64,000 nt of DNA from an uncultured Planctomycetota bacterium (GCA_963823665.1 CAWGMQ010000010.1:1728001-1792000); one strand, 5' to 3'; numbered from the stretch's first letter, positions 20,721 to 62,943 are shown. Notes: generated by a model from the letters alone, not told the origin. A program made the numbers and translations.

Positions 20721-20749
20721 TTACGGGTTCGGCCCCGGTTTCTCGCATT
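20721..20749 (+). promoter_or_regulatory. Putative ECF promoter, type A copy 1
   Basis: A-tract, then TTACGGG-N16-CGCATT. Confidence 0.65.
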
Positions 20750-20789
20750 AGGTTCTGGACGGGCCTCGCGGCCCGCTACTGAGGCTCCC

Positions 20790-23700
20790 ATGACCGAATC
20801 GCCACCCGACAACGAGGCGATCTTCTACGCCGCCCGGCAGGTTCCCGACCCGGACCGTCGGCGCGAGTTCGTCCGGGAGGCGTGCGGCCCAGACGAGGCA
20901 CGAATCGCCCGCATCGAGGCGCTGCTGGCGGCCGCCGAAGGCCCCGACAGCCTGCTGGACCGTCCAGTCCCGGCAACTGCCGTGGCGGCCTTCGGCCAGC
21001 CTGCCACGGAGAGCCCCGGCACGGTGATCGGCCCGTACAAGCTCATCGAGCAGATCGGCGAGGGCGGCATGGGCAGCGTCTGGATGGCCCAGCAGACCAA
21101 GCCTGTCTACCGCCTCGTCGCCGTCAAGCTGATCAAGGCGGGAATGGACTCCCGGCAGGTCATCGCCCGCTTCGAAGCCGAGCGGCAGGCGCTGGCCCTC
21201 ATGGACCACCCCAACATCGCCCGTGTGCTCGAGGGCGGCACCACCGGCGCTGGCCGGCCATATTTCGTCATGGATCTCGTCAAGGGTGTCCCGATCACCC
21301 GCTATTGCGACGAGCACCACCTCACGCCGCGGCAGCGGCTCGAACTGTTCATCACGGTCTGCCAGGCTGTCCAGCACGCTCATCAGAAGGGCATCATCCA
21401 CCGCGACTTGAAACCTACCAACGTGCTGGTCGCCCTCTATGATGGCAAGCCCGTGCCTAAGATCATCGACTTCGGCGTCGCCAAGGCGGCCGGGCAACAG
21501 TTGACCGACAAGACGCTGGTCACCCACTTCGGGGCAATCGTCGGCACGCTGGAATACATGTCGCCCGAGCAGGCGGAGTTGAACCAGCTCGACATCGACA
21601 CGCGCAGCGACATCTACTCGCTGGGCGTGCTGCTGTACGAGCTTTTGGCCGGCAGCCCGCCGTTCAGTCGCAAGGAGCTGACTCAGTCCGGCATGCTGGA
21701 AATGCTCCGCGTGATCCGCGAGCAGGAGCCAACCAAACCCAGCACGAAACTGAGCACTTCGGACGGCTTGCCGACCTTGGCCGCCAACCGCGGGACAGAG
21801 CCGGCGAGGCTGACCAAGCTGCTGCGTGGCGAACTTGATTGGATCGTGATGAAAGCGCTCGAAAAGGACCGCAACCGCCGCTACGAGACCGCCAACGGAT
21901 TCGCGATGGACGTGGCGCGCTACCTGGCCGATGAGCCGGTGCGGGCCTGTCCGCCGTCGGCCGGGTACCGGCTCCGGAAGTACGCCCGGCGCAACCGGGG
22001 TGGGCTGGCGGTGGCCGCGCTCTCGCTGTTCTTCCTCGTGCTTCTCGGTAGCGGCGTCGGGTGGGTCGTGCGCGATCGGTCGGCGCGGGAGATGGAAGCG
22101 GCCCGGCAACAGGGGGAGCGGCAGGCGAAGGTGGCCGGGCAGGTCATTTCGATCTTTGGCGAGGTAAACCGGCTGGAGAACGAGCAGAAGTGGCCCGAGG
22201 CCCTGGAGGCGGCCCGGCGGGCCGAGGCGGCCGTGGCCGTCGGCGAGGCAGATCCGGCAACCGCCGAGCGGGTCCACCAGCAGTTGAGGGAACTTGAGTT
22301 CATCGACCGGCTGGAGCGAATCCGGATGGAGAGGGCAACGCACGTTGAAGGGGTGTTCGACATTGCCGAGGCGGATCGGGATTACGCCCGGGCCTTCCGC
22401 GAGTACGGCGTCGATGTCGACGAGCTGCCGGTCGAGACGTCGATCGACCGGCTCAAGGCCCGCCCGCCACTCGCCGTCGTCTTGGCGGTGGCACTGGACG
22501 ACTGGGCTCGCGCCCGGCGCCAGGTCCCGCAACAGGATGCCGGCGGCTGGAAGCGGCTCGCGGCCGTGGCACGCGGTATCGACCCGGAGCCCCTGCGGGA
22601 CCGGGTCCGGGCGGCCTGGGGCCAGCCCGTCGCCAACGTGCCCGACGACCTGCTCCGGCTGGCCGACTCGATCGACGTTCGGGCCCAACACACCGCGACG
22701 CTCGACTTGCTCACCCGCACCCTCCGGCAGGTTCAGCATACCGACTCCGCGCTTCGGATTCTGCGGGAGGCGCACTTTGTCCACCCGGGCGATTTCTGGC
22801 TCAATTTCGAGCTGGGCCATGCGCTCCAGCAACAAGGAGACTACGAGGGCGCGGTTCGGTTCTACACCGCGGCCGTAGCCAGCCAACCGAGTTCGGCTGG
22901 CGCCCACAATAACCTCGGCAACGCCCTGTCCGCCCAGAAGCAGCCGGACGAGGCCATCGCCTGCTACCGCAAGGCCATCGAGCTCGACCCGAAATTCGCC
23001 GGCGCTTACCGCAACCTTGGCCTCGCCCTGCGCGACCAGGGCAAGCTGGACGAGGCCATCGTCGCCTTCGAAGAAGTCACCCGGCGCCAGCCGGATTTCC
23101 CCGAGGCGCATTTCGGACTTGCTTCAGTCCTCGCTCAGGCGAAGCAATGGGATCGCTCGGCTGGTGTCTACGCAGCAGCACTGAAGCGGTTTGGCGCCGA
23201 TCAATGGCCTGGGCCATGGTTTGAAGCCATCCGCTCCGACGAAGTTTTCACGCGCTTGACGGCCCAGCAACCGGATGCTCGCCTCCCTTGGATCGTCCGG
23301 GCTCGCCTCCATGTCTTCGAGCGCGACTGGAAACGCGCCGCGGCGGACTATACCCGCGCGAGCGAATCGTGGGCAAGCATGGGCCCGGCCGAACTCGCGC
23401 CGGAGGGCGATGACCTGCTTAGCTATGGCTGCCTGTTGCTCTTCTTGGGCGACCGCCACGGCTACGAGCAGTTTTGCAAAAAGTGGGCGGATGCGGTGGG
23501 CGACTCCCCGGCTTGTCGGTACAGCTTGGCGCGCGTCCGGGCGATGAGCCCCCGGCCGGTTGTCCCCGCGCAGCAGATCGTCGAGCTGGCTGGGAAGATC
23601 CTCCAGGCTGGTAGGTATCCCTGGGATCTACACGTCCTGAGCCTCGCCCACTACCGCAATGGGGAATTCGAACTGGCGGCCGAGCGCGCCCTTGAGTCGA

Positions 23701-23963
23701 ACGGGGGGAACTGGCGCGGCAGCGCAAAAGCTCTCAATTGGGTCGTCCTGGCGATGGCCCATTCCCGCCTGGGTCATGCGGCAGACGCGCGCAAGTCCCT
23801 GCAGCAGGCCCTCAAACTGGCCGGCCGAGCGAGCCCCGAGCAACTCCCCGGAGTGGAATGGCAGGACATGGCAGCGCCCGACGTCGTCGAATTCGAGCTC
23901 CTTCGCCGCGAGGCCGAGGAGCTCATCAACCCCAGATCGAAGGAAAAACCGGATAAGAAATAA
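20790..23963 (+). CDS. Membrane Ser/Thr kinase with TPR C-terminus (STK1, 4 core TPRs)
   Basis: Intact 1057-aa ORF with kinase motifs, a TM helix and 34-aa TPRs. Confidence 0.93.
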   Translation: MTESPPDNEAIFYAARQVPDPDRRREFVREACGPDEARIARIEALLAAAEGPDSLLDRPVPATAVAAFGQPATESPGTVIGPYKLIEQIGEGGMGSVWMAQQTKPVYRLVAVKLIKAGMDSRQVIARFEAERQALALMDHPNIARVLEGGTTGAGRPYFVMDLVKGVPITRYCDEHHLTPRQRLELFITVCQAVQHAHQKGIIHRDLKPTNVLVALYDGKPVPKIIDFGVAKAAGQQLTDKTLVTHFGAIVGTLEYMSPEQAELNQLDIDTRSDIYSLGVLLYELLAGSPPFSRKELTQSGMLEMLRVIREQEPTKPSTKLSTSDGLPTLAANRGTEPARLTKLLRGELDWIVMKALEKDRNRRYETANGFAMDVARYLADEPVRACPPSAGYRLRKYARRNRGGLAVAALSLFFLVLLGSGVGWVVRDRSAREMEAARQQGERQAKVAGQVISIFGEVNRLENEQKWPEALEAARRAEAAVAVGEADPATAERVHQQLRELEFIDRLERIRMERATHVEGVFDIAEADRDYARAFREYGVDVDELPVETSIDRLKARPPLAVVLAVALDDWARARRQVPQQDAGGWKRLAAVARGIDPEPLRDRVRAAWGQPVANVPDDLLRLADSIDVRAQHTATLDLLTRTLRQVQHTDSALRILREAHFVHPGDFWLNFELGHALQQQGDYEGAVRFYTAAVASQPSSAGAHNNLGNALSAQKQPDEAIACYRKAIELDPKFAGAYRNLGLALRDQGKLDEAIVAFEEVTRRQPDFPEAHFGLASVLAQAKQWDRSAGVYAAALKRFGADQWPGPWFEAIRSDEVFTRLTAQQPDARLPWIVRARLHVFERDWKRAAADYTRASESWASMGPAELAPEGDDLLSYGCLLLFLGDRHGYEQFCKKWADAVGDSPACRYSLARVRAMSPRPVVPAQQIVELAGKILQAGRYPWDLHVLSLAHYRNGEFELAAERALESNGGNWRGSAKALNWVVLAMAHSRLGHAADARKSLQQALKLAGRASPEQLPGVEWQDMAAPDVVEFELLRREAEELINPRSKEKPDKK

Positions 23964-23990
23964 GGCTGACGATCCGCCCGTTGTTTCGGT

Positions 23991-24019
23991 TTACGGGTTC
24001 GGCCCCGGTTTCTCGCATT
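23991..24019 (+). promoter_or_regulatory. Putative ECF promoter, type A copy 2
   Basis: TTACGGG-N16-CGCATT. Confidence 0.65.
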
Positions 24020-24059
24020 GTATTCTGGACGGGCCCTGCGGCCCGCCGCGGAGGCTCCC

Positions 24060-26997
24060 ATGACGGCATCACCACCCGACAACGAAGCAATCTTCCACGC
24101 CGCCCGCGACATCCCCGACCCGGCCCGCCGTCGGGCGTACGTCCGGGAGGCGTGCGGCCCAGACGAACCCCGGATCGCCCACATCGAGGCGCTGCTTGTG
24201 GCCGCCGACGGCCCCGACAGCCTGCTGGACCGTCCGGCGGCGGCCGCCGTCTTGGCGGCCATCGGCCAGCCTGCCACGGAGAGCCCCGGCACGGTGATCG
24301 GCCCGTACAAACTTATCGAGCAGATCGGCGAAGGCGGCATGGGCAGCGTCTGGATGGCCCAGCAGGCCAAGCCTGTCTACCGCCTCGTCGCGGTCAAGCT
24401 AATCAAGGCCGGCATGGACTCCCGGCAGGTCATCGCCCGCTTCGAGGCCGAGCGACAGGCGCTGGCCCTGATGGACCACCCGAACATCGCCCGCGTGCTC
24501 GACGGTGGCACCGCGGGCGGTGGCCGGCCGTACTTCGTCATGGATCTCGTCAAGGGTGTGCCCATCACCCGCTACTGCGACGAGCACCACCTCACGCCGC
24601 GGCAGCGGCTGGAGCTGTTCGTCCCCGTGTGCCAGGCAGTGCAGCACGCGCACCAGAAGGGCATCATCCACCGCGACCTGAAGCCCTCGAACGTGCTGGT
24701 CGCCCTCTATGACGGCAAGCCCGTGCCCAAGATCATCGACTTCGGCGTGGCCAAGGCTGCCGGGCAACAGTTGACCGACAAGACCCTGGTCACCGGCTTC
24801 GGGGCGATCGTGGGCACGCTGGAATACATGTCGCCCGAGCAGGCTGAGTTGAACCAGCTCGACATCGACACGCGCAGCGACATCTACTCGCTGGGCGTGC
24901 TGCTTTACGAATTGCTGGCCGGCAGCCCGCCGTTTTCTCGCAAGGAGCTGACGCACGCCGGCGTGCTGGAGATGCTCCGCGTGATCCGCGAGCAGGAGCC
25001 ATCAAAACCGAGCACGAAACTGAGCACGGCGGACGGCTTGCCGACGTTGGCCGTCAACCGCGGGACGGAACCGGCCAAGCTGACGAAGCTGGTGCGTGGC
25101 GAGCTCGATTGGATCGTCTTGAAGGCCCTGGAAAAGGACCGCAACCGCCGCTACGAGACCGCCAACGGCTTCGCGATGGACGTGCAGCGCTACCTGGCGG
25201 ATGAAGCTGTACAAGCGTGTCCGCCGGGCGGCGGCATACCGGCTGCGGAAGTTTGTGCGGCGGCACAAGGGGCCGGTGCTCGCCGGGTTGTTGATCTTGC
25301 TGGCCTTACTCGCCGGCGTCGTCGGCACGACCTATGGCCTGATTCGGGCGAAACAGCAACGCAAGGTCGTCGAGAATCAACGCAACGAGCTCGCCGAGCG
25401 CAACCAGGCGCTGCAAGCAGCCCGTGAACATGAACGCCTCCTGAGCGAACGTGCCCGCCAGGCCATCGAAACGGTCACGTCCGAAGCGTCCATCGACCTG
25501 CTCATGCGCGAGAAGGAGCTCCGCCCGGAGCAAAAAGACTTCCTGGACAAAATGATCCAGTATTACGCCGAGGTCAGCCAGGACGGGGGCACCACCGAAC
25601 AGGAACGAACCCGGCAGGCGCGAGCCTACTATCGGATGGGGCGCATGAACGACATTCTGGGCCGGTCCCGTGATAGTCAGAACGCTTATCGCCGGGCCGT
25701 GTCGCTTCTACAGCAACTCGCCGACGAGTTCCCCACCAGGACCGAGTACCGGCAGGAACTTGCCCTCGCCCACAGTGCGCTTGGAAACCTGCTCAACCAC
25801 GGCTTCGGGCGGCTGAAGGAGGCGGAGTCGGCCTACCGCGACGCCTTGGCCATCCAGAAGAAGCTCGCGGCCGAGGTCCCCGGCCGGCCCGAGTTCGGGC
25901 AGACCCTGGCCGGGATTTACAACAACCTGGGCAACGTGCTCGTCCTCGACACCGCGCGGTTGAAGGAAGCGGAGTCGGCCCACGCCGAGGCCCTGGCGAT
26001 TCGTCAGCAGCTTATCGTCGCTTTCCCCGGCCGGCCCATACTCCACCGCGCCCTGGCGATGAGCCACAACAATCTTGGCTGGTTATTCCAGATTACCAGG
26101 CGGCCGGAGAAAGCCGAGCCGGCCTTGCGCGATGCGATCGCCGCCCAGAAGCAGGCTGTCGCCAGCTTCCCCGACCGGCCCGAGTTTCGTCTGGAACTGG
26201 CGAGCTACCTCTTCAACCTCGGCAACCTGATCCGCGACAAGGGGCTGCTCAAGGAAGCGGAGGCGATCTATGGCGAGGCGCTGCCGATTGAGAAGCACCT
26301 CGTTGCCATGTTCCCAGGTCGGCCCCAGTTCCACGAGGAGCTGGCCGCGGGCCACAACAACGTGGGCCTTCTGCTCCGGGACAAGGGCCTGCTTGAGGAT
26401 GCAGAGGCTGCGCAGACCGAGGCCCTGGCTATTCAGAAGCGGCTCGCCTCCGAGTTCCCCGAGGTCACCAAATATCGCAACGCGGTCGCCGGCACACTCT
26501 TCAACCTGGCGAACCTGGCCGGCAAGCGTCGCGACTTCGCCGCCGCCCGCCGATTCCTCGACGAGGCGCTCCCCCACCACCAGGCTGCGCTAAAGGGCGA
26601 TTCGCAACGTTCGGACTACCGGCAGTTTTATCGAAACAGCCTGCTTGAGCTGACCCGGACTCATGCCGGCCAGGGGGACCGTCCCGGGGCGCTCGCCGTC
26701 GCAATGAAGGGGCATGATTTCGGTTGGGACCCAGCCGCCGATGCCTACGGGGCCGCTTGCATGTTGGCCCAGTGCATGCCAATTGTCGACAAAGACGACA
26801 AACTCGCTGCGGCAACACGACAAGCCGAAATCGCGTTCTACGCCGACCAGGCGATGGCCATGCTCCGCGATGCCCTCGCCAAGGGCTACAAGGATGCCGA
26901 CCACATGCAGACGGACAAAGACCTCGACCCGCTACGGCCACGCGAGGACTTCAAGACGGTAGTCGCGGAGCTGGAGGCGAAGGTGAAGAAGAACTGA
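24060..26997 (+). CDS. Membrane Ser/Thr kinase with ~48-aa TPR-like repeats (STK2), frameshift near 25230
   Basis: ORFs 24018..25427 and 25201..26997. FPxRPExRxxLA repeats and a DxDLDPLRxRxDF cap. Confidence 0.9.
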
Positions 26998-27002
26998 CAT
27001 CC

Positions 27003-27093: not shown

Positions 27094-27121
27094 TTACGGG
27101 TACGGCCCCGATTCTCGCATT
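27094..27121 (+). promoter_or_regulatory. Putative ECF promoter, type A copy 3
   Basis: TTACGGG-N15-CGCATT. One base short, possibly a homopolymer error. Confidence 0.6.
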
Positions 27122-27162: not shown

Positions 27163-31189
<4,027 letters not shown>

Positions 31190-31216: not shown

Positions 31217-31245
31217 TTACCGGTTCGGCCCCGGTTTCTCGCATC
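31217..31245 (+). promoter_or_regulatory. Putative ECF promoter, type A copy 4
   Basis: TTACCGG-N16-CGCATC. Confidence 0.6.
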
Positions 31246-31285: not shown

Positions 31286-34200
31286 ATGACGGCATCACCA
31301 CCCGACAACGAGGCGATTTTCCACGCCGCGCGCGCCATCCCCGACTCGGACCGCCGAAGGGCGTACGTGCGGGAGGCGTGCGGCGGAGACGAGACCCGGA
31401 TCGCCCACATCGAGGCGCTGCTTGTGGCCGTCGAAGGCCCCGACAGCCTGCTCGACCGTGCGGCGGCGGGTAATCCCATGGTGACCATCGACCGGCCTGC
31501 CACGGAGAGCCCCGGCACCGTGATCGGTCCGTACAAGCTCATTGAGCAAATCGGCGAGGGGGGCATGGGCAGCGTCTGGATGGCCCAGCAGACTGTGCCG
31601 GTCAAGCGATTGGTCGCCGTCAAGTTGATCAAGGCGGGCATGGACTCACGGCAGGTCATCGCCCGCTTCGAGGCCGAGCGGCAGGCGCTGGCGCTTATGG
31701 ACCACCCGAACATCGCCCGCGTGCTGGATGCCGGCACCACAGGCGGTGGCCGGCCGTACTTCGTGATGGATCTCGTCAAGGGGGTGTCGATCACGCGCTA
31801 CTGCGACGAGCACCACCTCACGCCGAGGCAGCGGCTGGAACTCTTTATCCCCGCCTGCCAGGCTGTTCAGCACGCGCATCAGAAGGGCATCATCCACCGT
31901 GACTTGAAACCTTCGAACGTGCTGGTCGCCCTCTATGATGGCAAGCCGGTGCCCAAGATCATCGACTTCGGCGTGGCCAAGGCTGCCGGGCAACAGTTGA
32001 CGGATAAGACGCTGGTCACCGGCTTCGGGGCGATCGTGGGCACGCTGGAATACATGTCGCCCGAGCAGGCGGAGGTCAACCAGCTCGACATCGACACACG
32101 CAGCGACATCTACTCGCTGGGCGTGTTGCTCTACGAGTTGCTGACGGGCAGCCCGCCGTTTTCACGCAATGAGCTGACCCAGGCCGGCATGCTGGAAATG
32201 CTCCGCTTGATCCGCGAGCAGGAGCCGTCAAAACCGAGCACGATGCTGAGCACGGCGGAGGGCTTGCCGACGTTGGCCGCCAATCGCGGGACGGAGCCGG
32301 CGAGGCTGACGAAGCTTGTGCGTGGCGAGCTTGATTGGATCGTGATGAAGGCCCTGGATAAAGACCGCATCCGCCGCTACGAGACCGCCAGCGGCTTCGC
32401 GATGGACGTGCGGCGCTACCTGGCCGACGAGCCAGTGCAGGCGTGTCCGCCTGGAGCGGGGTATCGGCTGCGCAAGTTCGCCAGGCGAAACAAGGGTGTG
32501 CTGGCGGTGGCAGCGCTGGTGCTGTTCTTCCTCGTGCTTTTCGGCAGCGGCGTCGGCTGGGTGGTGCGGGATCGGTCGGCGCGGGAGGGGGAGTTGCGTG
32601 CGGCGGTGACGGCGGCGCTCGACAAGGTGACGGACTTGCGAGAGCGCGGCGCTCGGGCGAGGCGCGTGCGGTGCTCGAGCAGGTGCGGCAGAGGCTCACG
32701 TCCTCGGGCGCGGAGGATTTGCCGCGTCAGGTGAAGCAAGCGGAGGCCGATGTGGCGCTCGTGGACAGGCTGGAGGCGGCGCGGCTGCAAGCGTCGGCGG
32801 TGGCCGGCAACATTCTCGACCATGCCTCGGCGGTAAGGGAGTACGCGGCGGCGTTTCGAGAAGCGGGTATCGGAGAGGAGACGGAGGCGGCGGAAGTCGT
32901 CGCGGATCGGATTCGATCAAGGGCGGTGCGGGAGCAGTTGGTGGCGGCCGTGGACGATTGGGCCGTGCGCGTGGGCAAGGAAGAACCGCCGCGTGCGACC
33001 TGGATGTTGGCGGTGGCGCGGGCGGTGGACCCCAATCCGTGGCGCAATCGTTTTCGGGATGCGGCGGTGTGGAACGACCGCACGGCGCTTGAGCGTCTGG
33101 CCCGCGAGGCGAAGGTGAGCGAACTGTCCCCGCAAATCATGAATGCATTGGGGATGCTATTGGTGAAGCTAAACGCGGATGCGATACCGTTGTTGACCGC
33201 GGCGCAGCGGCGTTATCCGAGCGATTTCTGGTTGAATTTTAGTTTGGGTGGGGCATTATATAATGCCCAGCGATGGGAGGAGGCGATCAGTTGCTACCGA
33301 GCGGCGTTGGTGTTGCGTCCGGCAGCCAGCGCCGCGTACCACAGCCTCGGCAACGCCCTGCGGATGAACGGCCGTGTGGATGAGGCCATCGCCGAGTACC
33401 AGAAGGCGATCGAACTCGACCCCAAGTATGGCCTTGCCCACGTCAACCTCGGCCACGCCCTGCGGGAGAAGCGCCGTGGGGATGACGGCATCGCCGAGTA
33501 CCGGAAGGCCATCGAACTCGACCCCAAGTTTGCCGCTGCCCACGTCAACCTCGGCCACGCCCTGCGGGATATGGGCCGTGGGGATGACGCCATCGCCGAG
33601 TACCGGAAGGGCATCGAACTCGATCCCAAGAATGGCCGTGCCTACGACAACCTCGGCCACGCCCTGCGGGATATGGGCCGTGTGGACGAGGCCATCGCCG
33701 AGTACCGGAAGTTCATCGAACTCGACCCCAAGTTTGCCGCTGCCCACTACTTCCTCGGCCTCGCCATGAAAGCCAAGGGAGACCTGGACGGGGCTGAGCG
33801 TGCCTTCCGTGAGGCAGTTCGTCTGGACGGCGAAAAGCACGGGGACGCCATCGATGCGCTGGCGGAACTGCTGCTGTCCCGCGGCAATTTGAAGGAAGCC
33901 ATCGCCACGTATCAAAAGATCATGATCCTCGATCCCGAGAGCGCGTCGGCGCACTACCACCTCGGAATCGCCCTGAAAGCCAAGGGAGACCTGGACGAGG
34001 CCATCGCCGCCTTCGAAGACGTCATCCGGCGCCAGCCGGATTTCACCGCGGCGCATTTCGGACTGGCTTCCGCCCTCGCCGAGGCCAAGCAATGGGATCG
34101 CTCGGCGAGTGTCTACGCAGCGGCACTGAAGCAGTTTGGCCCCGAGCGATCGCCCGGGCCGTGGTTTGAAGCCATCCGCTCGGACGAGGTTTTCACGCGC

Positions 34201-34567: not shown

Positions 34568-34569
34568 AC

Positions 34570-51257: not shown

Positions 51258-51325
51258 GTGTCTCCGCGCCCCCGATTTCTCGCATGACGTTCTGGACGGG
51301 CCTCGCGGCCCGCCGCGAGGCTCGC
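51258..51325 (+). promoter_or_regulatory. Type A promoter/leader copy 8 with a degenerate upstream box
   Basis: cccccgatttctCGCATgacgttctggacgggcctcgcggcccgccgcgaggctcgc-ATG. The upstream box is not conserved. Confidence 0.55.
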
Positions 51326-54300
51326 ATGACCGCATCGCCACCCGACAACGAGGCGATCTTCCACGCCGCCCGCGACATCCCCGACCCGGACCGCCGGCGG
51401 AAGTACGTCCGGGAGGCGTGCGGCGAGAGACGAGGCCCGGATCGCCCACATCGAGGCGCTGCTGGCGGCCGCCGACAGCCCCGACAGTCTGCTGGACCGT
51501 CCGGTGGCGGCCGCTGCCTCGGCGACCATCGACCAGCCTACCACGGAGAGCCTCGGCACAATCGTCGGCCCGTACAAGCTCCTCCAGCAGATCGGCGAGG
51601 GGGGAATGGGCGCCGTCTACATGGCCGATCAGCTCGAGCCGGTTCGCCGCCGCGTGGCGCTGAAGATCATCAAGCCGGGGATGGACAGCCGCCAGGTCAT
51701 CGCCCGCTTCGAGGCCGAGCGGCAGGCCCTGGCCATGATGGACCACCAGAACATCGCCCGCGTCCTCGACGTCGGCACGACCGCCAGCGGCCGGCCCTAC
51801 TTCGTGATGGAGCTGGTCCATGGCGTGCCCATCACCCAGTTTTGCGACGACGGCAAGCTGAACCCGCGGCAGCGGCTGGAACTGTTCGTGCCGGTGTGCC
51901 AGGCGATCCAGCACGCGCATCAGAAGGGGATCATCCACCGCGACGTCAAGCCGTCCAACGTCCTGGTGACGATGTACGACGATCTTCCGGTGCCCAAGGT
52001 GATCGACTTCGGCGTGGCCAAGGCGGTCGAGCAGCGGCTGACGGAAAAGACGATGTTCACGCAGTTCGGCGCCTTTGTCGGCACCTTTGAGTACATGAGC
52101 CCCGAGCAGGCCGAGATGAATGCCTTCGGCGTCGACACGCGCAGCGACATCTACTCGCTGGGCGTCCTGCTCTATGAACTGCTTACAGGGACGACGCCCC
52201 TGGAGCAGAAACGGCTGCGCGAAGCAGGCCTGGCCGAGATGGTGCGGCTGATCAAGGAAGCGGAAGCGCCGCGGCCGAGCGTGCGGCTCTTCAGCTCGAA
52301 CAACCTGCCGAAGATCGCGGCGGCGCGGAACACGGATCCGGGCCGGCTATCGGGAATTGTCCGCGGCGAGCTCGACTGGATCGTGATGAAGTGCCTGGAG
52401 AAGGACCGCAAGCGGCGGTACGAAACCGCAAGCGGCCTGGCGCGGGACATCCAGAGATACCTCGCCGACGAGCCGGTGGAGGCGTGCCCGCCGGGCGCGG
52501 GCTACCGGCTGCGCAAGGCCGCACGCAAGCACCGCACGCCGCTGCTCGTGGCGAGCGCATTCCTGGTACTGCTGGTCTCAGGCGCGGTCGCCAGCGCCTG
52601 GCAAGCCGTTCGCGCCACCGTGGCCGAGAGAGAGGCCGAGAGCCGCAAGCGCGAGGCCGACGACGCCCGGGCGCAGGCCGAAGAGCGGCGCGACAAGCTG
52701 GCGGCCGTGAACGACACCCTGCGACGGGCCAGTTACGTCGCCGACGTGAACCTGGCCCACGTCGCCTGGGACGAGAACAATCTGAGCCGCGCCCACGAGT
52801 TGCTGGAGAAACACCGGCCCCGGCCCGGCGAGACCGATCTGCGCGGGTTCGAATGGCATTACCTTCGCCGTCTTTTTCAGCGCGATCTGCTCACCGTGAA
52901 GGCGCATCCCGGTGGGGTTACGGCCGTCGCCTTCACCCCCGACGGCAAGCGGCTGGTCACTTCCGGTGCGAGCCGCCCACGACAGAAATACTCGGACCCG
53001 AGGCTCGGCGATTTCAAGCTCTGGGATGCGGCTACGGGCCAGCAACTTCGCTTCCCGCTCGGCGGCCGCGCCCTTGAAGTGGAAAGAGTGGCGCTCAGCC
53101 CCGACGGTACCCGTCTCGCCGCGACTTGTTTGAATCAGACGGTCCTGGTATGGGAACTGGCCACCGGCGGCCTCGTCTCGCTGCAAGGGCCCGCGGGAGC
53201 GGTCGCCCGGAATGTGAATTTCAGTCCCGACGGCAAGCGACTGGTCTGCTCGTTTAACCCCGCTGACGACGATCCGACGAAGGATTCGCCGCGTTCGATC
53301 TGGATCTGGGACCTGGTAGAGCGCCGGGCCGTCGTGACCATCGATCGGCTCCCGTGGGGTGGATTCATGGCACCGTCCTTCAGCCCGGACGGCAAACTCC
53401 TGGCCGCCCCCCACGGGAGGGGTCTCGTCAAGGTGTGGGATGCGGCTACAGGCCACGAGGTCTTCTCTTGCAAATACGCCGATAGGTCAATCGTCTGTGA
53501 CGCAGCCTTCAGCCCGGACGGCAAACGTCTGGCCATCTGCGGTTATTATAACGGGATCCGCACCTGGGACGTGGCCAGCCGCGAGATGCTCTCCGCCTGG
53601 ACGTCCGAGTTCCAGGTCCGCGAATGCCTGGCCTTCAGCCGCGACGGCAAACGCCTGGCGACGGGAGGTATCCGCGGGATCGTCGAGGTGTGGGACACCA
53701 TGACGGGTCTCAAGGTCCAGACCTTCAAAGGGCACTTAGGACCGGTCGACGCCATCGCCTTCGCTCCGGACGGCATGCGCCTGGCCACCGGGAGCGCCGA
53801 CGGCACCTTGCGCCTCTGGGACGTGACCGAGCCTCCGGAGGCCGTCTCCATCCCCAAAGATGCAGCCGCGGCCGGAGGATTCCCCGACTTGAGCCCCGAC
53901 GGCCAGACGCTCCTGACCGATCCCGTATCGGGCGAGCGAAGGCCTCTTCGGCTCTGGGACACCGCCACGGGCAAGCCGCGCTGCGAGGCGATCGAGCTCC
54001 CGCAGCCCGCAGTCAGCTGGGCATGGACCGCCGACGGGAATCATCTGTACCTCGCAGACTCCGGCAAGGCCATCCGCGTCGTGGACGTCGCGACCGGCAA
54101 GGTGATCCGCACGTTCCCGGTCGACGCCGAAATCAATCCACTTAGGTACGACATCGCGCTTAGTCCTGATGAGAGATGGTGCGCGAACAGCGGGCCAGCC
54201 GGCACGATCACGGTGCGGGATGCCCAGAACGGCGCCCCATTCCGCACGATGGGGAAGCTCGAAGGCTCGGCGGGGATCTTGGCGTTCGGCCCGGACGGCT

Positions 54301-54758
54301 CGCGGTTGCTGGGAGCCGATGAGTACGGGGCGCTCAAGATCTGGGAAGTCGCCACGGGGCGCGAGATCGCGGCGACACGTTTGAGCGGCGTCTTGATCCA
54401 GGTCGCCCGGTTCAGCGCGGACGGAAAGCGCGTGGCCGTCGCGGGCCTCGTCGGTCAGTTGCTGACCGGTGAGGTGCGGATCCTGGACGCCGAAACCGCC
54501 CGCGAAGTCCAATCACTCAGGGGGCACTCCGCCAACGTGAAGGACGCGGTTTTCAGCCCCGACGGCGGGCGCCTGGCTACCGCGAGCGTGGACCAGACGA
54601 TCCGGATCTGGGACCTCGCCACCGGCCAGGAGATCCTCAAGTTGAGCGGCGACCCGAAGGTCTACACTGTCCGGTTCGTCGCGGGCGGCCGCCGATTGAT
54701 CGGCGCATCGGCGGATCGGACCATCCGCGTCTGGGACGCCACGCCGCTGCCGGAATAG
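51326..54758 (+). CDS. Membrane Ser/Thr kinase with WD40 propellers (STK6), frameshift near 51425
   Basis: [12 protein letters not shown] leader, kinase motifs, a TM helix, [10 protein letters not shown] and many [11 protein letters not shown] blades. Confidence 0.92.
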
Positions 54759-54807
54759 CGTCCTGTCCCGGTCGATCCCTGCCCCCCACTGCGTTATCAT
54801 GGCCGGC

Positions 54808-55365
54808 ATGAGTGAAGTCACACAGCTTTTGGATCAGATCCAGCAAGGCGATCCGCAAGCCGCTGCCGACCTGCTGCCCTTGGTCTATTCCGAATTGCGT
54901 CGCCTCGCCGCGGCGCGGTTGGCTCATGAAAAGCCCGGACAGACACTGGATGCGACGGCCTTGGTGCACGAAGCGTACCTGCGCCTGGTGGGGCCGGCCG
55001 ACGAGGAACGCTGGCGGAGCCGCGGCCACTTTTTCGCCGCCGCGGCCGAAGCAATGCGCCGAATTCTCGTCGAGCTTGCCCGGCGAAAGAGTCGAAAGAA
55101 ACGCGGGGGCGAACGTGTCCGCACGAACCTGGATCAGGTCGAGCCGGCTGCGGCGCCGCCCGGCGAGGACTTGCTGGCCCTCGACGAAGCCTTGACCCGG
55201 CTTGCCGTTGCCGATCCGATCGCCGCGGAGCTCGTGAAACTGCGCTATTTTGCCGGCATGACGATTCCTCAAGCCGCCGAATCTCTGGGCATAGGGAAGC
55301 GGTCGGCCGACCGGCTCTGGCTTTATGCCCGTGCCTGGCTGCGCAACGCGCTTTCCGAGAGCTAG
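54808..55365 (+). CDS. ECF sigma factor, TIGR02999/ECF43-like (ECF-B)
   Basis: MSEVTQLL...LLPLVYSELRRLA...QTLDATALVHEAYLRL...WLYARAWL. The start was chosen by alignment with ECF-A. Confidence 0.92.
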   Translation: MSEVTQLLDQIQQGDPQAAADLLPLVYSELRRLAAARLAHEKPGQTLDATALVHEAYLRLVGPADEERWRSRGHFFAAAAEAMRRILVELARRKSRKKRGGERVRTNLDQVEPAAAPPGEDLLALDEALTRLAVADPIAAELVKLRYFAGMTIPQAAESLGIGKRSADRLWLYARAWLRNALSES

Positions 55366-55386: not shown

Positions 55387-55415
55387 TGGCGCGATTTCTG
55401 CGCCGTTGGCGCATG
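55387..55415 (+). promoter_or_regulatory. Putative ECF promoter, type B copy 1
   Basis: TGGCGCG-N16-CGCATG. Confidence 0.65.
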
Positions 55416-55461: not shown

Positions 55462-58400
55462 ATGGGCGAACGATCGATTTTCATCGCGGCGCTGGAAAAG
55501 GACGATGCCGCCGAGCGCGCCGCCTATCTCGACCAGGCGTGCGCCGGTGATGAGCTCTTCGCGCACGGATCGAACGGTTGCTCAAGGCACACGAGCCCGC
55601 CGACAGTTTCCTCGAGCGAGGTCCCACAGTCCTGGATGCGACCGACAATCTCGATCCGATCGCGGAACCCCTCGGCACGGTCATTGGCCCGTACAAGCTT
55701 ATTGAGCCGATCGGCGAGGGGGGCATGGGCAGCGTCTGGATGGCACAGCAGACCGAGCCGATCAAACGCTTGGTCGCCGTCAAATTGATCAGGGCCGGCA
55801 TGGACTCCCGCCAGGTCATCGCCCGCTTCGAGGCCGAGCGGCAGGCGCTGGCCCTGATGGACCACCCCAACATCGCCCGCGTCCTGGACGCCGGCACCAC
55901 AAGCGCTGGCCGGCCGTACTTCGTCATGGATCTCGTCAAGGGAGTGCCCATCACGCGCTACTGCGACGAGCACCACCTCACGCCGCGGCAGCGGCTGGAA
56001 CTCTTCATCCCCGTCTGCCAGGCCGTCCAGCACGCTCATCAGAAGGGCATCATCCACCGTGACTTGAAGCCCTCCAACGTGCTGGTCGCGCAATACGACG
56101 GCAAGCCGGTGCCGAAGATCATCGACTTCGGCGTGGCCAAGGCTGCCGGGCAACAGTTGACCGAGAAGACGCTCGTCACCGGCTTCGGCGCGATCGTGGG
56201 CACGCTGGAATACATGTCGCCCGAGCAGGCGGAGTTGAACCAGCTCGACATCGACACGCGCAGCGACATCTACTCGCTGGGCGTGCTGCTCTACGAGTTG
56301 CTTACCGGCAGCCCGCCGTTTTCCCGCAAGGAGTTGACGCAGGCCGGCATGCTGGAGATGCTCCGCGTGATCCGCGAGCAGGAGCCATCGAAACCGAGCA
56401 CGAAGCTGAGCACGGCCGAAGGTTTGCCCACATTGGCCGCCAACCGCGGGACAGAGCCGGCCAAGCTGACAAAGCTGGTGCGTGGCGAACTGGATTGGAT
56501 CGTGATGAAGGCGCTGGAGAAAGACCGCAACCGCCGCTACGAGACGGCCAACGGCTTCGCCATCGACGTGCAGCGTTTCCTCTCGGGCGAGCCCGTGCTG
56601 GCGGTGCCGGCGACCACGCTGTACCGGCTGCGGAAGTTTGTAAAGCGGCACAGGGGGCCGGTGGCGGCGGTGGGGCTGGTCCTGCTCACGCTGGTCGGCG
56701 GCATAGCCGGGACGACGTCGGGTCTGCTGCGGGCCGCGGCGAAGAATCGAGAAGCCGTGGCCCAACGCGATGCCAAGGATAGGGCGCTGATAAGCGAGCA
56801 ACAGGCCCGCGCTGACGAAACGAAGGCCCGCCAGCAAGCGTTCGCCGCCTTGCGGAGCATGACCACCGACGTGGTCGAGAGGAAGTTCGCCCAGGGGACT
56901 GCGCTCACGGCGGACGATCGGGCGTTCCTCCGCGGTGTCATCGCACAGTTCGATGCCTTTGCGGCGATCAAGGGAAACGACGCCGGCAGCCGGTTTGTGC
57001 GGGCCGACGGACGATCGCGGGTCGGCAACATTCGTCGCAGACTAGGTGAGCTCAAGGAGGCGGAGCAGGACTTAGGCCAGGCTATGAGCATGTACAAGGA
57101 ACTGGCGGCCGACTTCCCTGGTCGACCCGACTTCCGCAAGGAACTGGCCGCAACTCACCGCCTCCGGGGCCTTCTGTTGGTTCAGTTGGGCCGGCTCAGA
57201 GAGGCGGAGCCGGACATCAACCAGGCCGTGACGCTCAACGAGCAACTGGCGGCGGACTTCGCCTCACAAGCCGACGACAGCCAGGAGCTGGCCAGAAGCT
57301 TTAACAACCGAGGCCTTCTGCGGCAGGAGACAGGCCGGCCGAAAGAGGCCGAGCAGGACTTCGAACAGGTCCTGCGCATCTACACGCAACTGGGGGCCGA
57401 CTTCCTTGGTCGACCCGACTTCCGCAAGGATCTGGCCCGTGGTCAGCATAACCTGGCTTTCCTGCTGAGCATCACGGGCCGGCTGCCTGAGGCGTTAACG
57501 GCCTTCGACCAGGCCCTGGGCGTCCAGAAGCAACTGGCGGCGGAGTTTCCGTCCCAACCCGAGTTCCGCAATGAGGCAGCCGTAACTCACATCGACCGGG
57601 GCACGCTGCTGGTGAACATGGGCCGGCCCAAGGAGGCGGAAGAGGACTGCGACCAGGCCGTGCGTATCTACACGCAACTGGCGGCTGACTTCCCCTCGGC
57701 ACCCGAATTCCGCACGAGGCTGGCCACAGGTCACCACAACCGGGGAAATGTGCGGCTCGCCACGGGCCGGCTGCCTCTGGCAGAGAAGGACTTCGATCAG
57801 GCCCTGAGTATCAACAAGCAACTCGCGGCCGACTTCCCCTCCCAAACTGCGTTCCGCCACGACCTGGCCTCCAGCCGCAGTGCCCGCGGCAGTCTGCTGT
57901 TGGAAATGGGCCGGCTCAAGGAGGCAGAGCAGGAATATGACCAAACCTTGAGCGTCCGGAAGCAACTGGTAGCCGAGTCCCCCAGCCAGCCGGACCTGCG
58001 GAAGGAACTGGGGGGCACCTTCGACAACCTGGCGCTTGTCTATCTGCGCCAAGGATACTTTGCTGCGGCCAAACCCCTGCTCCTGGAGGGCCTGCCGCAC
58101 CATCTGGCCGCCCTGAAGGTCAACCCCCGGCATCCTCAATATCGCCTGACCTACCGCAAGCATCTGAGCCTGCTGCCAGAGGTTCACGCGGAGCTGCTGG
58201 AGCAGGAAGATGCCGTGCACGCCGCTCTTGCCGTGGGGGACCTGGGTTATGACCCGCCCGCGGATGCCTACGACGCGGCGTGTCTTCTGAGCCGGTGCGT
58301 CCGGAGGGTATCGAAGCACGACAAGTTGGACGACAAAGAGCGCCAGCAGGCGGCGCAGTTCTACGGCGACGAGGCGATGAAGCTCCTCCGCGCAGCGGTG

Positions 58401-58541
58401 AGCAAGGGCTTCAAAAACGTGGCGCACATGAAAAAAGACACCGATCTCGATCCCTTGCGCAAGCGGGACGATTTCCAGAAGCTCGTCGCGGAGCTGGAGG
58501 CCGCGGCCGTCCCAGAAAAAGATAAAAGCATAGAAGAATAA
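55462..58541 (+). CDS. Membrane Ser/Thr kinase with diverged 48-aa repeats (STK7), frameshift near 55560
   Basis: MGERSIFIAALE leader plus ORF 55578..58541. Confidence 0.92.
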
Positions 58542-58554: not shown

Positions 58555-58583
58555 TTGCGCGATTTCCGCGCCGATGGCGCATC
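58555..58583 (+). promoter_or_regulatory. Putative ECF promoter, type B copy 2
   Basis: TTGCGCG-N16-CGCATC. Confidence 0.65.
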
Positions 58584-58628: not shown

Positions 58629-61600
58629 ATGAGCGAACGAACGATTTTCATCGCGGCGCTGGAAAACGACGATGCCAACGAGCGGGCCGCCTATCTCGAC
58701 CAGGCGTGCGCCGGTGATGAGCTCTTGCGCGAACGGATCGAACGGTTGCTCAAGGCACACGAGCCGGCCGACAACTTCCTCGAGCGTGCGTCCCGCAGTC
58801 CTCGATGCTACCGACAATTTTGAGCCAATCGCCGAATCTGCCGGCACGGTGATCGGCCCGTACAAGCTCATTGAGCCGATCGGCGAGGGCGGCATGGGCA
58901 GCGTCTGGATGGCACAGCAGACCGAGCCGGTCAAGCGCCTGGTCGCCGTCAAGTTGATCAAGGCCGGCATGGACTCCCGGCAGGTCATCGCCCGCTTCGA
59001 GGCCGAGCGGCAGGCGCTGGCCCTGATGGACCACCCGAACATCGCCCACGTGCTCGATGCCGGCACCACCAGCGGTGGCCGGCCGTACTTCGTCATGGAT
59101 CTGGTCAAGGGGATGCCCATCACCCGCTACTGCGACGAGCACCAGCTCACGCCGCGGCAGCGGCTGGAACTGTTCATTCCGGTCTGCCAGGCGGTCCAGC
59201 ACGCGCATCAGAAGGGCATCATCCACCGCGACTTCAAGCCCTCCAACGTGCTGGTCGCCCTCTACGACGGCAAGCCGGTGCCCAAGGTCATCGACTTCGG
59301 CGTGGCCAAGGCGACCGGGCAACAGCTGACCGACAAGACGCTGGTCACCGGCTTCGGGGCGATCGTCGGCACGCTGGAATACATGTCGCCCGAGCAGGCG
59401 GAGGTCAACCAGCTCGACATCGACACCCGCAGCGACATCTACTCGCTGGGCGTGCTGCTCTACGAGTTGCTGACCGGCAGCCCGCCGTTCTGCCGCAAGG
59501 AGCTGGACAAGGCCGGCATGCTGGAGATGCTGCGCGTGATCCGCGAGCAGGAGCCATCGAAACCGAGCACGAAGCTGAGCACGGCCGACGGCTTGCCGAC
59601 GCTGGCCGCCAACCGCGGGACGGAGCCGGCAAAGCTGACCAAGCTGGTCCGGGGCGAACTCGACTGGATCGTGATGAAGGCGCTGGAGAAGGACCGCGGC
59701 CGGCGTTACGAGACGGCCAACGGCTTCGCGATGGACGTGCAGCGCTACCTGGCGGGCGAGCCGGTGCTGGCGGCGCCGGCGACCGGCTGTACCGGCTGCG
59801 GAAATTTGTAAAGCGGCATCGGGGGCCGGTCGCGGCGGCGGGGCTGGTCCTGCTGACGTTGGTCGGCGGCATCGCCGGGACGACGTGGGGCCTGCTGGCG
59901 GCCGCGTGCCGAGGCGAAGAATCGAGAAGCCGTGGCCGAGCGCGATGCCAAGGATCGGGCCCTGAAAAGCGGAACAACAGGCCCGCGCAGACGAAACGAA
60001 GGCCCGGCAGCAAGCGTTCGCCGCCTTGCGGAGCATGACCACCGACGTGGTCGAGACGGAAGTTCGCCCAGGGGACGGTGCTGACGGAGGACGACCGGGC
60101 GTTCCTGCGCGGCGTCATCGCGCAGTTCGATGCCTTTGCGGCGATCAAGGGAAACGACGCCGACAGCCGGGCGATGCGGGCGGAGGGACGATTCCGAGTC
60201 GGCACCATGCGTCACAGGCTGGGTGAACTCCAGGAGGCGGAGCAGGACTACGACCAGGCCCTCATCATCCAGAAGCAACTGGCGGCCGACTTCCCCTCCC
60301 GCCCCGAGTTCCGCGAGGGCCTGGCCAATGGCCACAACAACCGGGGCATTCTGCTGCGGAAGACGGGCCGGCTCAAGGAGGCGGAGCAGGACTACGACCA
60401 GGCCCTGAGCATCAAGAAGCAACTGGCGGCCGACTTCCCCGCCCGACCCGAGTTCCGCCAGGAGCTGGCCAAAAGCCACAACAACCGAGGCACTCTGCTG
60501 CAGAAAACGGGCCGGCCCAAGGAAGCGGAGCAGGACTACGACCAGGCCCTGAGCATCCAGCAAGCAACTGGCGGCCGACTTCCCCTCCCGACCCGAGTTC
60601 CGCCAGGAGCTGGCCAGAAGCCACAACAACCGGGGCAATCTGCTGCGCGACACGGGCCGGCCCAAGGAGGCGGAGCAGGACTACGACCAGGCCCTCTTCA
60701 TCCAGAAGCAACTGGCGGCCGACTTCCCTGCCCGACCCGAGTTCCGCCAGGAGCTGGCCAGAAGCCACTTCAACCGGGGCGGTCTTCTGCGTGAGACGGG
60801 CCGGCTCCAGGAGGCGGAGAAGGACTACGACCAGGCCCTGAGCGTCCAGAAGCAACTGGCGGCCGACTTCCCCGCCCGACCCGAGTTTCGCCAGGAACTG
60901 GCCAGAAGCCACAACAGCCGAGGCAATCTGCTGCGTGACACGGGCCGGCTGACAGAGGCGGAGCAGGACTACGACCAGGCCCTGAACATCAAGAAGCAAC
61001 TGGCGGCCGACTTCCCCGCCCGACCCGAGTTCCGCCAGGACCTGGCCAGAAGCCACAACAGCCGAGGCAATCTGCTGCGTGACACGGGCCGGCCCAAGGA
61101 GGCGGAGCAGGACTACGGCCAGGCCGTATGCCTCTACAAGCAGCTAGTGGCCGACTTCCCCTCCCGGCCCGAGTTCCGCCAGGACCTGGCCAGAAGCCAC
61201 AACAGCCGGGGCAATCTACTGGCTACCACGGGCCGGCCCAAGGAGGCGGAGACAGGACTTCGACCAGGCACTGAGCCTCGACCAGCAATTGGCGGCCGAC
61301 TTCCCCAACCAGCCGGACCTGCGGAACGACCTGGCGGGCACCTGCGTGAACCTGGCGCATCTCCATCAACTCGAGGGGCAACTGGGCTGCCGCCAAACGG
61401 CTGCTCCTGGAAGGCCGGCCGCACCACCTGGCCGCCCTGAAGGCCAACCCCCGCCACCCGGCCTATCGCCAGTTCTATCGCACCCATCTCGGCCTGCTGA
61501 CCGAGGTCCACGCGGGGCTGCTGGAGCAGGAGGACGCTGTCCGCACCGCCGAAACGTGTCGGGACCTGGGCTGGAACGCGCCGGCGGATGCCTACGACGC

Positions 61601-61859
61601 GGCGTGCATGCTGAGCCAGTGCGTCCCCATCGTGGCCAAGCACGACAAGCTGGACGACCAGCAGCGGAAGCCAGCGGCGCAGTTCTATGGCGACGCGGCG
61701 ACGAAGATGCTCCGCGATGCAGTGAGCAAGGGCTACAAGGACTTGGCGCACATGAAGAAAGACACCGATCTCGATCCCTTGCGCCAGCGGGACGATTACC
61801 GGAAGCTCGTCGCCGAACTGCAGACCGCGGCCGTCCCAGAAAAAGTTAATAGCAGATAG
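58629..61859 (+). CDS. Membrane Ser/Thr kinase with near-identical 48-aa repeats (STK8), several frameshifts
   Basis: Paralog of STK7, pieced together from ORFs at 58629, 58672, 60078, 61147 and 61608. Confidence 0.85.
60230..61310 (+). repeat. 144-bp tandem repeat array inside STK8
   Basis: Anchor ggact(a/t)cg at 60245, 60389, 60533, 60678, 60822, 60966, 61110 and 61255. Confidence 0.92.
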
Positions 61860-61866: not shown

Positions 61867-61955
61867 GCCCGCGCCTGGCTGCGTGACGCAGCTTTCTGCC
61901 AGCTAGAAATTAGCCAACGGATTTCTTGGCGCGAATTCCACGCCGACGGCGCATG
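61867..61955 (+). promoter_or_regulatory. Orphan ECF-B 3' tail plus type B promoter copy 3
   Basis: gcccgcgcctggctgcgtgacgcagctttctgccagctagaaattagccaacggattt resembles 55327-55383. TGGCGCG-N16-CGCATG lies at 61927-61955. Confidence 0.75.
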
Positions 61956-62007
61956 CTGTCTTGGAGTCGCAGCGGCGATCTCCAGGCGAGATAGAGGCAA
62001 GCCGTTC

Positions 62008-62164
62008 ATCACCGAACTGACTACACCCAAAGCGAAGCGGCCGGCGGGGTCCTTACCGCCAAGCAAGCCCCCGCCGGCCCGGCAACGCTCCAGCGATCGG
62101 TCTGCGCGCTGGGACGATGTCTATTGCATTGTATCGCAGACCAGCTCCCGAAAGGAGAAACATC
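62008..62164 (+). ncRNA. Candidate structured 5' leader, copy 2
   Basis: Stems 62039-49/62069-79 and 62099-106/62135-42, then an AAAGGAG RBS. Confidence 0.45.
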
Positions 62165-62793
62165 ATGTTGTCCTCTTCCTGGCTGCGAAACTCGAAAAGC
62201 TCCGCACCCGTGGCGGCCCGGCGCACACCAACATCCCCTCGCCGGCGAACCAGTGTCCGCCCGCGACTGGAAGCGATCGAAGATCGCTGTTTGATGTCGA
62301 CGGCCGTCGTGCAAACCAACCTCGTGTCTGACGACACCCAATTCACTTCGGCCCAGATTCAGGACCCGAACCTGGTCAATCCCTGGGGGCTGGCCGTCGG
62401 TCCAACCGGCGCGTGGTGCGTCGCCAACGAGGGAACGGGCACCAGTACGCTCTACAACACCTCGAAAATCAGCCGTGGGCAGTAGCGATGGCCCCCTCGA
62501 ACTTTGGCAGCTTCAGCCACGATCTGCTGGTCGGCAATTTCGGCGACGGCACGATCAACGCCTTCAATCCCAAGAACGGCCATTTCGCCGGTGAGCTCAA
62601 GAACTCGAGCGGCCAACCGATCGCCATCACGCACCTGTGGGGGCTGGTGTTCGGCAATGGCGGCGCCGCCGGCCCCAAGAACACGCTGTACTTCACGGCC
62701 GGCCTGACCTCGCACCTGGCCCCCAGCGACAACCCTTTCCACGGCCTGTTTGGCTCCCTGCGAATGGCGCGGCACCGGCCAGGCGGGCGCTGA
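62165..62793 (+). pseudogene. TIGR03118-like secreted protein with a LEPR-XLL-like signal and a large internal deletion
   Basis: RPRLEAIEDRCLMS, QTNLVSD, DPNLVNPWGLA and GTSTLY, joined out of frame near 62465 to QPW...LLVGNFGDGTINAF...LWGLVFGNG...LYFTAG...HGLFGSL. Confidence 0.75.
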
Positions 62794-62914
62794 CGGTCAA
62801 CGGGAGCGTGGCCGTCCCCGTGAGAAAGTCGGTGTCAGATCATGAGTTTGAGAAAGGATGAACTGACACCGAGTTGCTGCGATCGGCGCGGATTCCGAAA
62901 AAAAAGCTCTCTGC

Positions 62915-62943
62915 TGGCGCGATTCTGGTCTGGACGGCGCATT
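62915..62943 (+). promoter_or_regulatory. Putative ECF promoter, type B copy 4 (upstream of the second surface protein)
   Basis: A-tract, then TGGCGCG-N16-CGCATT, in otherwise non-homologous context. Confidence 0.65.

Follow-up and report, generated by a model that had tools for sequence, protein, structure and literature searches.

In EcfK-PknS of Xanthomonas citri and EcfP-PknT of Vibrio parahaemolyticus, an extracytoplasmic function (ECF) sigma factor of family PF07638, with Thr in place of the DAED motif, is encoded next to a kinase (position +1) that has one membrane helix, tetratricopeptide repeats (TPRs) and a helical segment ahead of its kinase domain (so described in the available text of PMC13147305 and PMC7826278). 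A locus that appears to work like this ECF43 signalling lies in a 64,000-nt stretch of DNA, the window, from an uncultured Planctomycetota bacterium (GCA_963823665.1 CAWGMQ010000010.1:1728001-1792000; positions are counted from the window start). It encodes two TIGR02999 sigma factors, ECF-A (20123..20701, + strand) and ECF-B (54799..55365, +), and carries twelve copies of a bipartite motif, consisting of a first box, 16 nt and CGCAT, in two types, A and B. Unlike the ECF43 pairs, it has a predicted sigma-specific promoter between sigma and kinase and up to five kinase paralogues per sigma, and at least 41 such sigmas, matching TIGR02999 above its cut-off, occur in the one genome. On comparison of sequences, it is very probable that the motif is the promoter of the adjacent TIGR02999 sigmas, and probable, if somewhat less so, that it is a sigma-specific promoter with insulated dialects, ECF-A reading type A and ECF-B type B.

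ECF-A and ECF-B score 219 and 206 bits against TIGR02999 (curated cut-off 126), with PF07638 matched at E 1e-63. Like ECF43 members, they match the single Sigma70_ECF Pfam domain rather than separate sigma2 and sigma4 models; they precede a kinase with TPRs and one membrane helix (predicted from hydropathy, peaks 2.0-2.9); and they carry Thr for DAED in region 2.2 (QATA, with Thr50, in ECF-A; DATA in ECF-B), a residue found at that column in 180 of the 183 family loci described below. ECF43 is defined as proteobacterial only and the nearest named relatives of these sigmas are Planctomycetota and Verrucomicrobiota, which is why they are called ECF43-type here, formal group assignment being left aside; the authors of the ECF43 group themselves report poor retrieval of this sigma type (available text of PMC7826278). 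An ECF217 label was dropped after comparison with the group descriptions in the same text. The named relatives, along with the TIGR02984 sigma of the locus, point to a planctomycete source. The predicted fold of ECF-A (pLDDT 76) finds ECF sigmas as its best Foldseek matches, none at E 0.001 or better, too weak for a residue-level contact map.

The sequence-only reading had placed twelve copies of the motif in the window, and all are present where it put them, on the + strand: ten are exact, the copy at 27094 has a 15-nt spacer, and the copy at 51258 lacks the first box. Type A (TTRCSGG-N16-CGCAT) has six matches in the window against 0.05 expected by chance, and type B (TKGCGCG-N16-CGCAT) has four against 0.09; none of 100 shuffles reaches six or four, respectively. 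The first copy of each type begins ~20 nt beyond the stop codon of its sigma gene: 20721..20748 (TTACGGG-N16-CGCAT, 20 nt past the ECF-A stop, predicted transcription start, +1, at 20757) and 55387..55414 (TGGCGCG-N16-CGCAT, predicted +1 at 55423). The remaining A copies are at 23991..24018 (predicted +1 at 24027; homology with the first copy begins at the -35 box), 27094..27120 (preceded, from 27003, by ~90 nt of remnant ECF-A 3' end), 31217..31244 (first box TTACCGG), 34659..34686 (also with an ECF-A remnant; the next kinase ATG reads ATT), 40085..40112 (followed by a leader and a gene stub, ATG at 40370, akin to those after 61927), 40532..40559 (first box TTGCGGG) and 51258..51285 (-10 half only, with GTGTCTC in place of the first box). 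The remaining B copies are at 58555..58582 (first box TTGCGCG), 61927..61954 (preceded by ~60 nt of remnant ECF-B 3' end) and 62915..62942 (predicted +1 at 62951). T|G stands at the predicted -1/+1 in all twelve. Seven copies precede membrane kinase genes with TPR or WD40 tails, four (40085, 40532, 61927 and 62915) precede genes or stubs whose products begin with an LE.R.LL-like motif, and the copy at 34659 is followed by what was once a kinase start and, after that, by a TIGR02984 sigma gene with its own kinase. Placed behind the sigma gene, the site would direct transcription of kinase and exported-protein genes rather than of the sigma itself.

A looser form of the motif recurs downstream of many TIGR02999 genes in the source genome (among the best 30 of 112 matches). 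The family-wide search was trained on the best 80 of the GTDB matches listed, mostly from Planctomycetota with some from Verrucomicrobiota, the window being left out. De novo expectation maximization (EM) on 79 downstream regions yields a T tract, TG(A/G)GNNN, 16 nt and CGCAYTG in 54, with TG at -23 from CGC in 28 of the 54 and at any other offset in at most five. In held-out loci, a box-only matrix finds the site downstream of 12 of 28 sigma genes in the same genome (upstream 0/28, reversed 0, shuffles 0.3) and of 12 of 22 in relatives (upstream 0/22, reversed 1, shuffles 0.6). The full set comprises 183 distinct loci (194 before duplicate removal), including the training loci and the two window sigmas; the site is downstream of 117 of these sigma genes, reversed at 1/183 and upstream, within 230 nt, at 1/182. 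A search ahead of the kinases that follow TIGR02999 sigmas, which the sequence-only reading had proposed as a check, bears it out: the site is found in 108 of 148 loci with a downstream kinase and in nine of 35 without. Its geometry is kept after sigmas that are only 49-66% identical, across two phyla, and the median leader from the predicted +1 to a start preceded by a Shine-Dalgarno sequence is 27 nt (89 sites). In the cultured Paludisphaera borealis, TGAGGCG-N16-CGCAT follows the sigma gene on plasmid PALBO1.

When each sigma is given its own matrix and 40 stretches are searched, further cognate copies turn up near other sigmas, in front of additional kinases or LE.R.L proteins (C7, five copies, C11 and C4 of genome G000; nine copies in an orthologous cluster of G001; three at L257 of G008). 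Most sigmas in these stretches have one cognate copy and several have none; reverse-strand matches are zero for every sigma except one, which has four. An autoregulatory copy upstream of the sigma gene is the rarity that the single case in 182 implies, and de novo EM in 120 regions upstream of sigma genes gives no motif. One locus, L234 (G000 C4 ~1238400, - strand), has a cognate site both upstream and downstream of its sigma gene, the upstream one lying beyond those 230 nt, a possible case of autoregulation. How the sigma genes themselves are expressed is suggested by TAnnnT, which precedes the sigma ATG by 6 nt in 13, by 7 nt in 18 and by 8 nt in 9 of 149 starts and by any other distance in at most three; this suggests leaderless housekeeping transcription for about one quarter of them. 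ECF-B fits the pattern exactly (TATCAT 7 nt before the ATG at 54808); ECF-A has TATAAC.

The bases of the site vary with the sigma beside it. Covariation, measured over the 117 sigma/promoter pairs as mutual information with background correction, is strongest between residue 96 and base -15 (z 20), followed by 169 with -32 and -31, 166 with -33 and -34, 170 with -35, 70 with -9, and 89 with -14 and -13. Arg96 goes with G, Ser or Ala with T and Thr with C at -15; Asp70 goes with T and Asn70 with C at -9. In a weak alignment with SigL (E 0.03), residues 166, 169 and 89 fall, in RpoE numbering, on Gly168, Arg171 and Asn84, and 170 on Ser172. Across ECF sigmas at large, Todor 2020 pairs Gly168 with -33, Arg171 with -32 to -30, Ser172 with -34 and -33, and Asn84 with -13 and -12 (SI Table S1, PMC7776599, in its available part), so that our approach and three position pairs (Gly168/-33, Arg171/-32,-31 and Asn84/-13) agree with that work. 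The TIGR02999 sigmas differ from it in that the Ser172 position tracks -35 rather than -34 and that residue 96 tracks -15/-16, outside the table. Arg170 likely stands in for Arg176, Todor's reader of -35, whose position is Tyr or Phe in 152 of the 183 sigmas. The available text of Todor 2020 describes mining only upstream of sigma genes and operons, to which a downstream site would be invisible (PMC7776599).

With all sigmas at least 60-75% identical to the query removed, the code ranks a sigma's own promoter at a median of 0.017 among 117; 30 random column sets average 0.50, the best reaching 0.33. When position pairs are selected within one random half of the data, 49, 46 and 51 of 58 held-out promoters fall in the top tenth. 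Trained on the 114 other pairs, at positions chosen on all 117, the code assigns all eight type A copies to ECF-A (S166 E169 K170 T96 D89 G70) and all four type B copies to ECF-B (R166 D169 R170 R96 E89 R70), each copy preferring the neighbouring sigma by 5-20 bits on code positions. The earlier proposal that A copies follow ECF-A and B copies ECF-B is thus upheld by a code from outside the locus. Its picture of one candidate regulon in two dialects stands as far as the site recurs, in one direction, after TIGR02999 genes and the code sorts all twelve copies; A and B turn out to be just two of many dialects, the 30 sigma loci of the source genome showing 24 different six-residue codes and -10 variants such as GGCAT and AGCAT. 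Covariation and code assignment displaced the initial view of A and B as no more than local duplicates of a single family consensus. One clade (L029, L031, L033, L038, L042 and L245) has TGTCG(C/G)A-N16-AGCAY, often overlapping the last codons of the sigma gene; its residues 89 and 96 are Asp and Arg, which leaves the A at -13 unexplained by the six-residue code.

A second code, for pairing of kinase and sigma, is suggested by a swap of charge between sigma residue 140 and the N-terminal domain of the kinase. At the DNA level, A1-A4 and B1-B2 share 88-92% identity across their kinase domains; the first 180 nt of the kinase genes are 81-91% identical within the A group, 92% within the B group and 56-61% between groups. 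Covariation links sigma residue 140 to residue 9 of the kinase (z 14.7, 58 pairs). Among the 79 of 183 loci in which a pattern locates the N-terminal domain, the pairing is basic/acidic in 39, basic/basic in none, non-basic/acidic in three and non-basic/basic in 27; in 39 loci unused before, the corresponding counts are 20, 0, 2 and 12. The window obeys the rule, with K140 and E9 for A and A140 and Arg for B. Weak support comes from modelling ECF-A in complex with the A1 domain: the score is 0.59, the best control scoring 0.00, at least 79% of contacts are common to the runs, and the partner pLDDT is 76 or higher. Of the solved pairs, 116 of 157 reach the mark, as do 2 of 215 mismatched ones, but only 18 of these solved pairs, together with both mismatches, stand at 0.60 or below. 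Pfam has no family for 55 of these N-terminal domains.

Several facts weigh against a sigma-specific promoter with insulated dialects. Of the 183 loci, 66 fall under the score cut. Counting the C of CGCAY as -13, a pyrimidine is at -1 in 81 and a purine at +1 in 107 of the 117 sites, the latter signal being partly circular, as the purine columns belong to the scoring matrix. The published ECF43 promoter, predicted from upstream of sigma genes, is GTC at -35 and CAG at -10 (PMC7826278, available text) and differs from the downstream motif. Because C at -33 (2 of 24) and K170 (one case) are rare in training, the A copies reach only +0.8 to +3.7. The tree test counts 12-30 changes per trait; the sigma tree being star-like, only 2-4 independent pairs fall on supported branches (p at least 0.25), one pair for 70/-9 running the opposite way, and the pairing of residue 140 with kinase residue 9 has only three. 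Most genes of the locus are split over frames. Neither Pfam nor NCBIfam gives a LEPR-XLL-type match for the products at 40656, 62165 and 63204, whose motif was found by eye, and a genome search with PF07595 (150 of 512 candidates scored) gives no match among these three. Lastly, in a distant metagenome set (80 loci obtained with a betaproteobacterial query, together with four from plasmids), the site is picked up by the matrix downstream in 5/74 and upstream in 1/75; sigma and kinase genes often overlap there, as they do, with the site absent, in the one proteobacterial locus examined. Twelve of 24 hand-picked distant loci with a gap between the genes match a loose T(G/T)-N21-CG with -10 CGTTT or CGCGTT, an uncontrolled count of which one match is probably chance. 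The distant sigmas that show the same geometry with this -10 (L280, L292, L295, L313, L315, L316, L329, L338, L283, L321 and L301) have KAMRH or xxMRR in sigma-2 in place of EAMRR, which hints that residues 81 and 85 may read -11/-10. One record titled Chitinophaga, a title that is probably wrong, has 21 TIGR02999 matches (L092).

The chief competitor is that the dialects are not insulated, ECF-A and ECF-B reading both types and sharing kinases, with the locus forming one regulon. The two types do have the -10 core CGCAT in common, identity between their kinase domains is 88-90%, one and the same leader and gene start stand behind the A copy at 40085 and the B copy at 61927, and the sigma-B matrix gives several A copies scores of 17-26 against 26-35 for its own, 40532 being intermediate. 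What makes a single regulon unlikely is the preference of every copy for its neighbouring sigma on the code positions, the divergence of the kinase N-terminal domains in obedience to the charge rule, and the finding that single base changes mattered to ECF sigmas in Todor 2020 (PMC7776599, available text). That another protein (the housekeeping sigma, another ECF sigma or a repressor) reads a site that merely travels with the sigma-kinase pair is very unlikely: the differing ECF43 motif would speak for it, but the bases change together with residues in the recognition helix and in sigma-2 of the adjacent sigma and not with random columns, and a sigma-70 scan of 19900-35100 gives two sites against 1.3 expected, none at the motif.

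The origin of the window copies bears on the proposal that they are functionless, neutral debris of tandem kinase duplications. The motif has spread in the locus through duplication of a promoter cassette. A single cassette accounts for the eight A copies, whose identity is 75-92% across 60-490 nt; it starts in some cases exactly at the -35 box and in others with ~90 nt of the ECF-A 3' end, still present at 27094, 34659, 40085 and, partly, 40532. The copies at 55387, 58555 and 61927 are a second cassette, 82-88% identical. The sequence-only reading had taken the keeping of boxes and spacing as an argument for function over mere duplication. Boxes and the 16-nt spacing are indeed kept in ten of twelve copies, 27094 and 51258 being the exceptions, but with eleven of the twelve inside two duplicated cassettes, both this and the count of twelve are weak evidence within the window. 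Its remark that 62915 sits in a third context is correct: the flanks have no blastn homology to the other copies. Some copies look decayed (51258 has no -35 box, 34659 precedes the ATT kinase start, 40085 precedes a gene stub), and several copies in the window are probably dead. Debris may thus hold for single copies; for the element as a whole it is highly improbable, given a geometry kept after very divergent sigmas in two phyla and, at 62915, both boxes and T|G kept in unrelated surroundings. That the unit between sigma and kinase acts as RNA (a terminator, attenuator or leader hairpin) has just as slender a chance, since the GGGCC-N4/5-GGCCC that follows type A copies is absent from type B, the window has no Rfam match, and the family-wide signal, for all the T-rich tract before the first box, consists of a pair of boxes, set a constant distance apart, whose bases covary with a protein.

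Outside the window, the two dialects remain close to it. Within 31 kb beyond the window end there are two further A copies and one further B copy. In the genome (16.5 Mb, 12 contigs, 92% complete), covered by pattern searches and selected stretches, eight of ten A-pattern matches (two mismatches allowed) and five of seven B-pattern matches (one mismatch allowed) lie in contig C10 at 1.75-1.82 Mb, and one further B-pattern match outside this cluster follows another TIGR02999 sigma. From this clustering the A and B regulons look local. Just beyond the window end (G000 C10 1813001-1817833) there are two more TIGR02999 genes in split frames; one of the two is 92% identical to ECF-B and comes with TGGCGCA-N16-CGCAT and a kinase of its own. 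Five copies of a 170-nt leader, marked by a GC-rich inverted repeat around CCTTACCGCCAAGCAAG, are present at this locus only (40208-40375 and 61995-62170 in the window; 1803178, 1803510 and 1820494 in G000 C10), 87-91% identical, behind both A and B promoters and without a Rfam match.

Read as a sigma-specific promoter, the motif suggests the following scheme. The sigma would be made without autoregulation, often probably from a leaderless mRNA with a housekeeping -10 box, and would become active only once the Thr of QATA or DATA is phosphorylated by a membrane kinase, by analogy with EcfP/PknT and EcfK/PknS. The kinase would pick its sigma through its N-terminal helical domain (K140-E9 for A, A140-Arg for B), the A and B catalytic domains being ~90% identical. 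The active sigma would start transcription at +1, 13 nt from the C of CGCAY, and so make more of its own kinases, a positive feedback that runs through the sensor. Several TPR or WD40 sensors per sigma would feed the same channel, and the output would be surface or exported proteins with the LE.R.LL motif. Whether this extends to the family is an evenly balanced matter: the expanded TIGR02999 sigma-kinase family of Planctomycetota and Verrucomicrobiota may form dozens of insulated channels per genome, each of one sigma and many sensors, specified by two codes (six residues that define a private downstream promoter, among their contacts an extended -10 one at -15/-16 and a re-wired one at -35, and a charge pair of sigma4 and the kinase N-terminal domain) and growing as cassettes of 60-160 nt are copied ahead of new kinase and exported-protein genes.

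Kinase-linked ECF sigmas are numerous in planctomycetes. The usual promoter search looks upstream of the sigma gene, where TIGR02999 sigmas show none. A downstream promoter with a readable code, if it holds, would make the regulon of each paralogue predictable from sequence and would allow a direct test of how many sigma paralogues escape cross-talk. Exported proteins with the LE.R.LL motif are indicated as the output of these switches, the N-terminal kinase segment, left open in the PknS paper, gains a candidate role, and the sigma/promoter pairs might supply orthogonal, phosphorylation-gated parts. No report of a target promoter or family-wide code for TIGR02999 sigmas was found in the literature, where earlier works or supplements may hold predictions. 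ECF41 and ECF42 promoters have a 16-nt spacer. They resemble the site in a -35 that starts with TG (TGTCACA, TGTCGAT) and a -10 that starts with CG (CGTC; PMC7826278, available text); the -10 here is CGCAY(TG). ECF41 and ECF42 sigmas autoregulate, and their control is through C-terminal extensions instead of kinases. The planctomycete, kinase-linked groups ECF59, ECF61, ECF62 and ECF217 also encode a kinase beside the sigma, and Planc_extracel proteins are reported near ECF217s1; as described in the same available text, the predicted promoter is only TC in ECF59 and not conserved in ECF61 (PMC7826278).

The genes behind the sites are all on the + strand. Kinase A1 (20790..23963) has an intact frame with the N-terminal helical domain (E9), a Hanks kinase domain, one hydrophobic helix and TPRs. 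It is followed by the TPR kinases A2 (24060..26997, two frames, break near 25200-25430), A3 (27163..31189, two frames, break near 27570) and A4 (31286..34567, several frames). The third ECF sigma, of the separate group TIGR02984 (34934..35566), is a possible downstream target of ECF-A, and is paired with a kinase-WD40 of a different type (35585..39997, split frames), before which the motif is absent; in 34659-35566, an A-type promoter without a kinase stands ~240 nt before this sigma and kinase, a possible sigma cascade across two families. A large repeat protein with an N-terminal LEVLEGRALL motif and choice-of-anchor Q, MBG_2 and Big_3_5 domains (40656..49201, several frames) is likely an exported adhesin. 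Between it and kinase A5 lies a di-haem oxidoreductase (DHOR) gene in two frames (49217-51224), after which the A cassette begins inside the spacer, so that the -35 box is lost at 51258. A5 itself (51326..54758, WD40, break near 51420) combines an A-type N-terminal domain with a more distant kinase domain (72-75% identical in DNA). Behind ECF-B are the TPR kinases B1 (55462..58541; B-type N-terminal domain with Arg at the E9 position, break near 55560) and B2 (58629..61859, several frames), a TIGR03118-family gene with an LEAIEDRCLM N-terminal motif (62165..62793, two frames) and a paralogue of the repeat protein at 40656 with LELLEGRALL (63204..64000, running off the window end). The label Planc_extracel/LEPR-XLL for the LE.R.LL proteins is provisional and is confirmed by no family model. 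Indel errors in the assembly are the likely cause of the split frames, since several TIGR02999 matches elsewhere in the genome are also partial.

Apart from the two sigma clusters, an orphan kinase-TPR gene at 7322-10297 (-) has no motif at its start. Just upstream of it, two small genes (10400-11389, -) resemble, judging from their translations, a RelE/HigB toxin and a helix-turn-helix antitoxin. Upstream of ECF-A, 12167-20042 encodes a BlaR1/M56 peptidase that carries carboxypeptidase-regulatory repeats, a fusion of gluconolactonase and GSDH, and an unassigned open reading frame of 425 amino acids.

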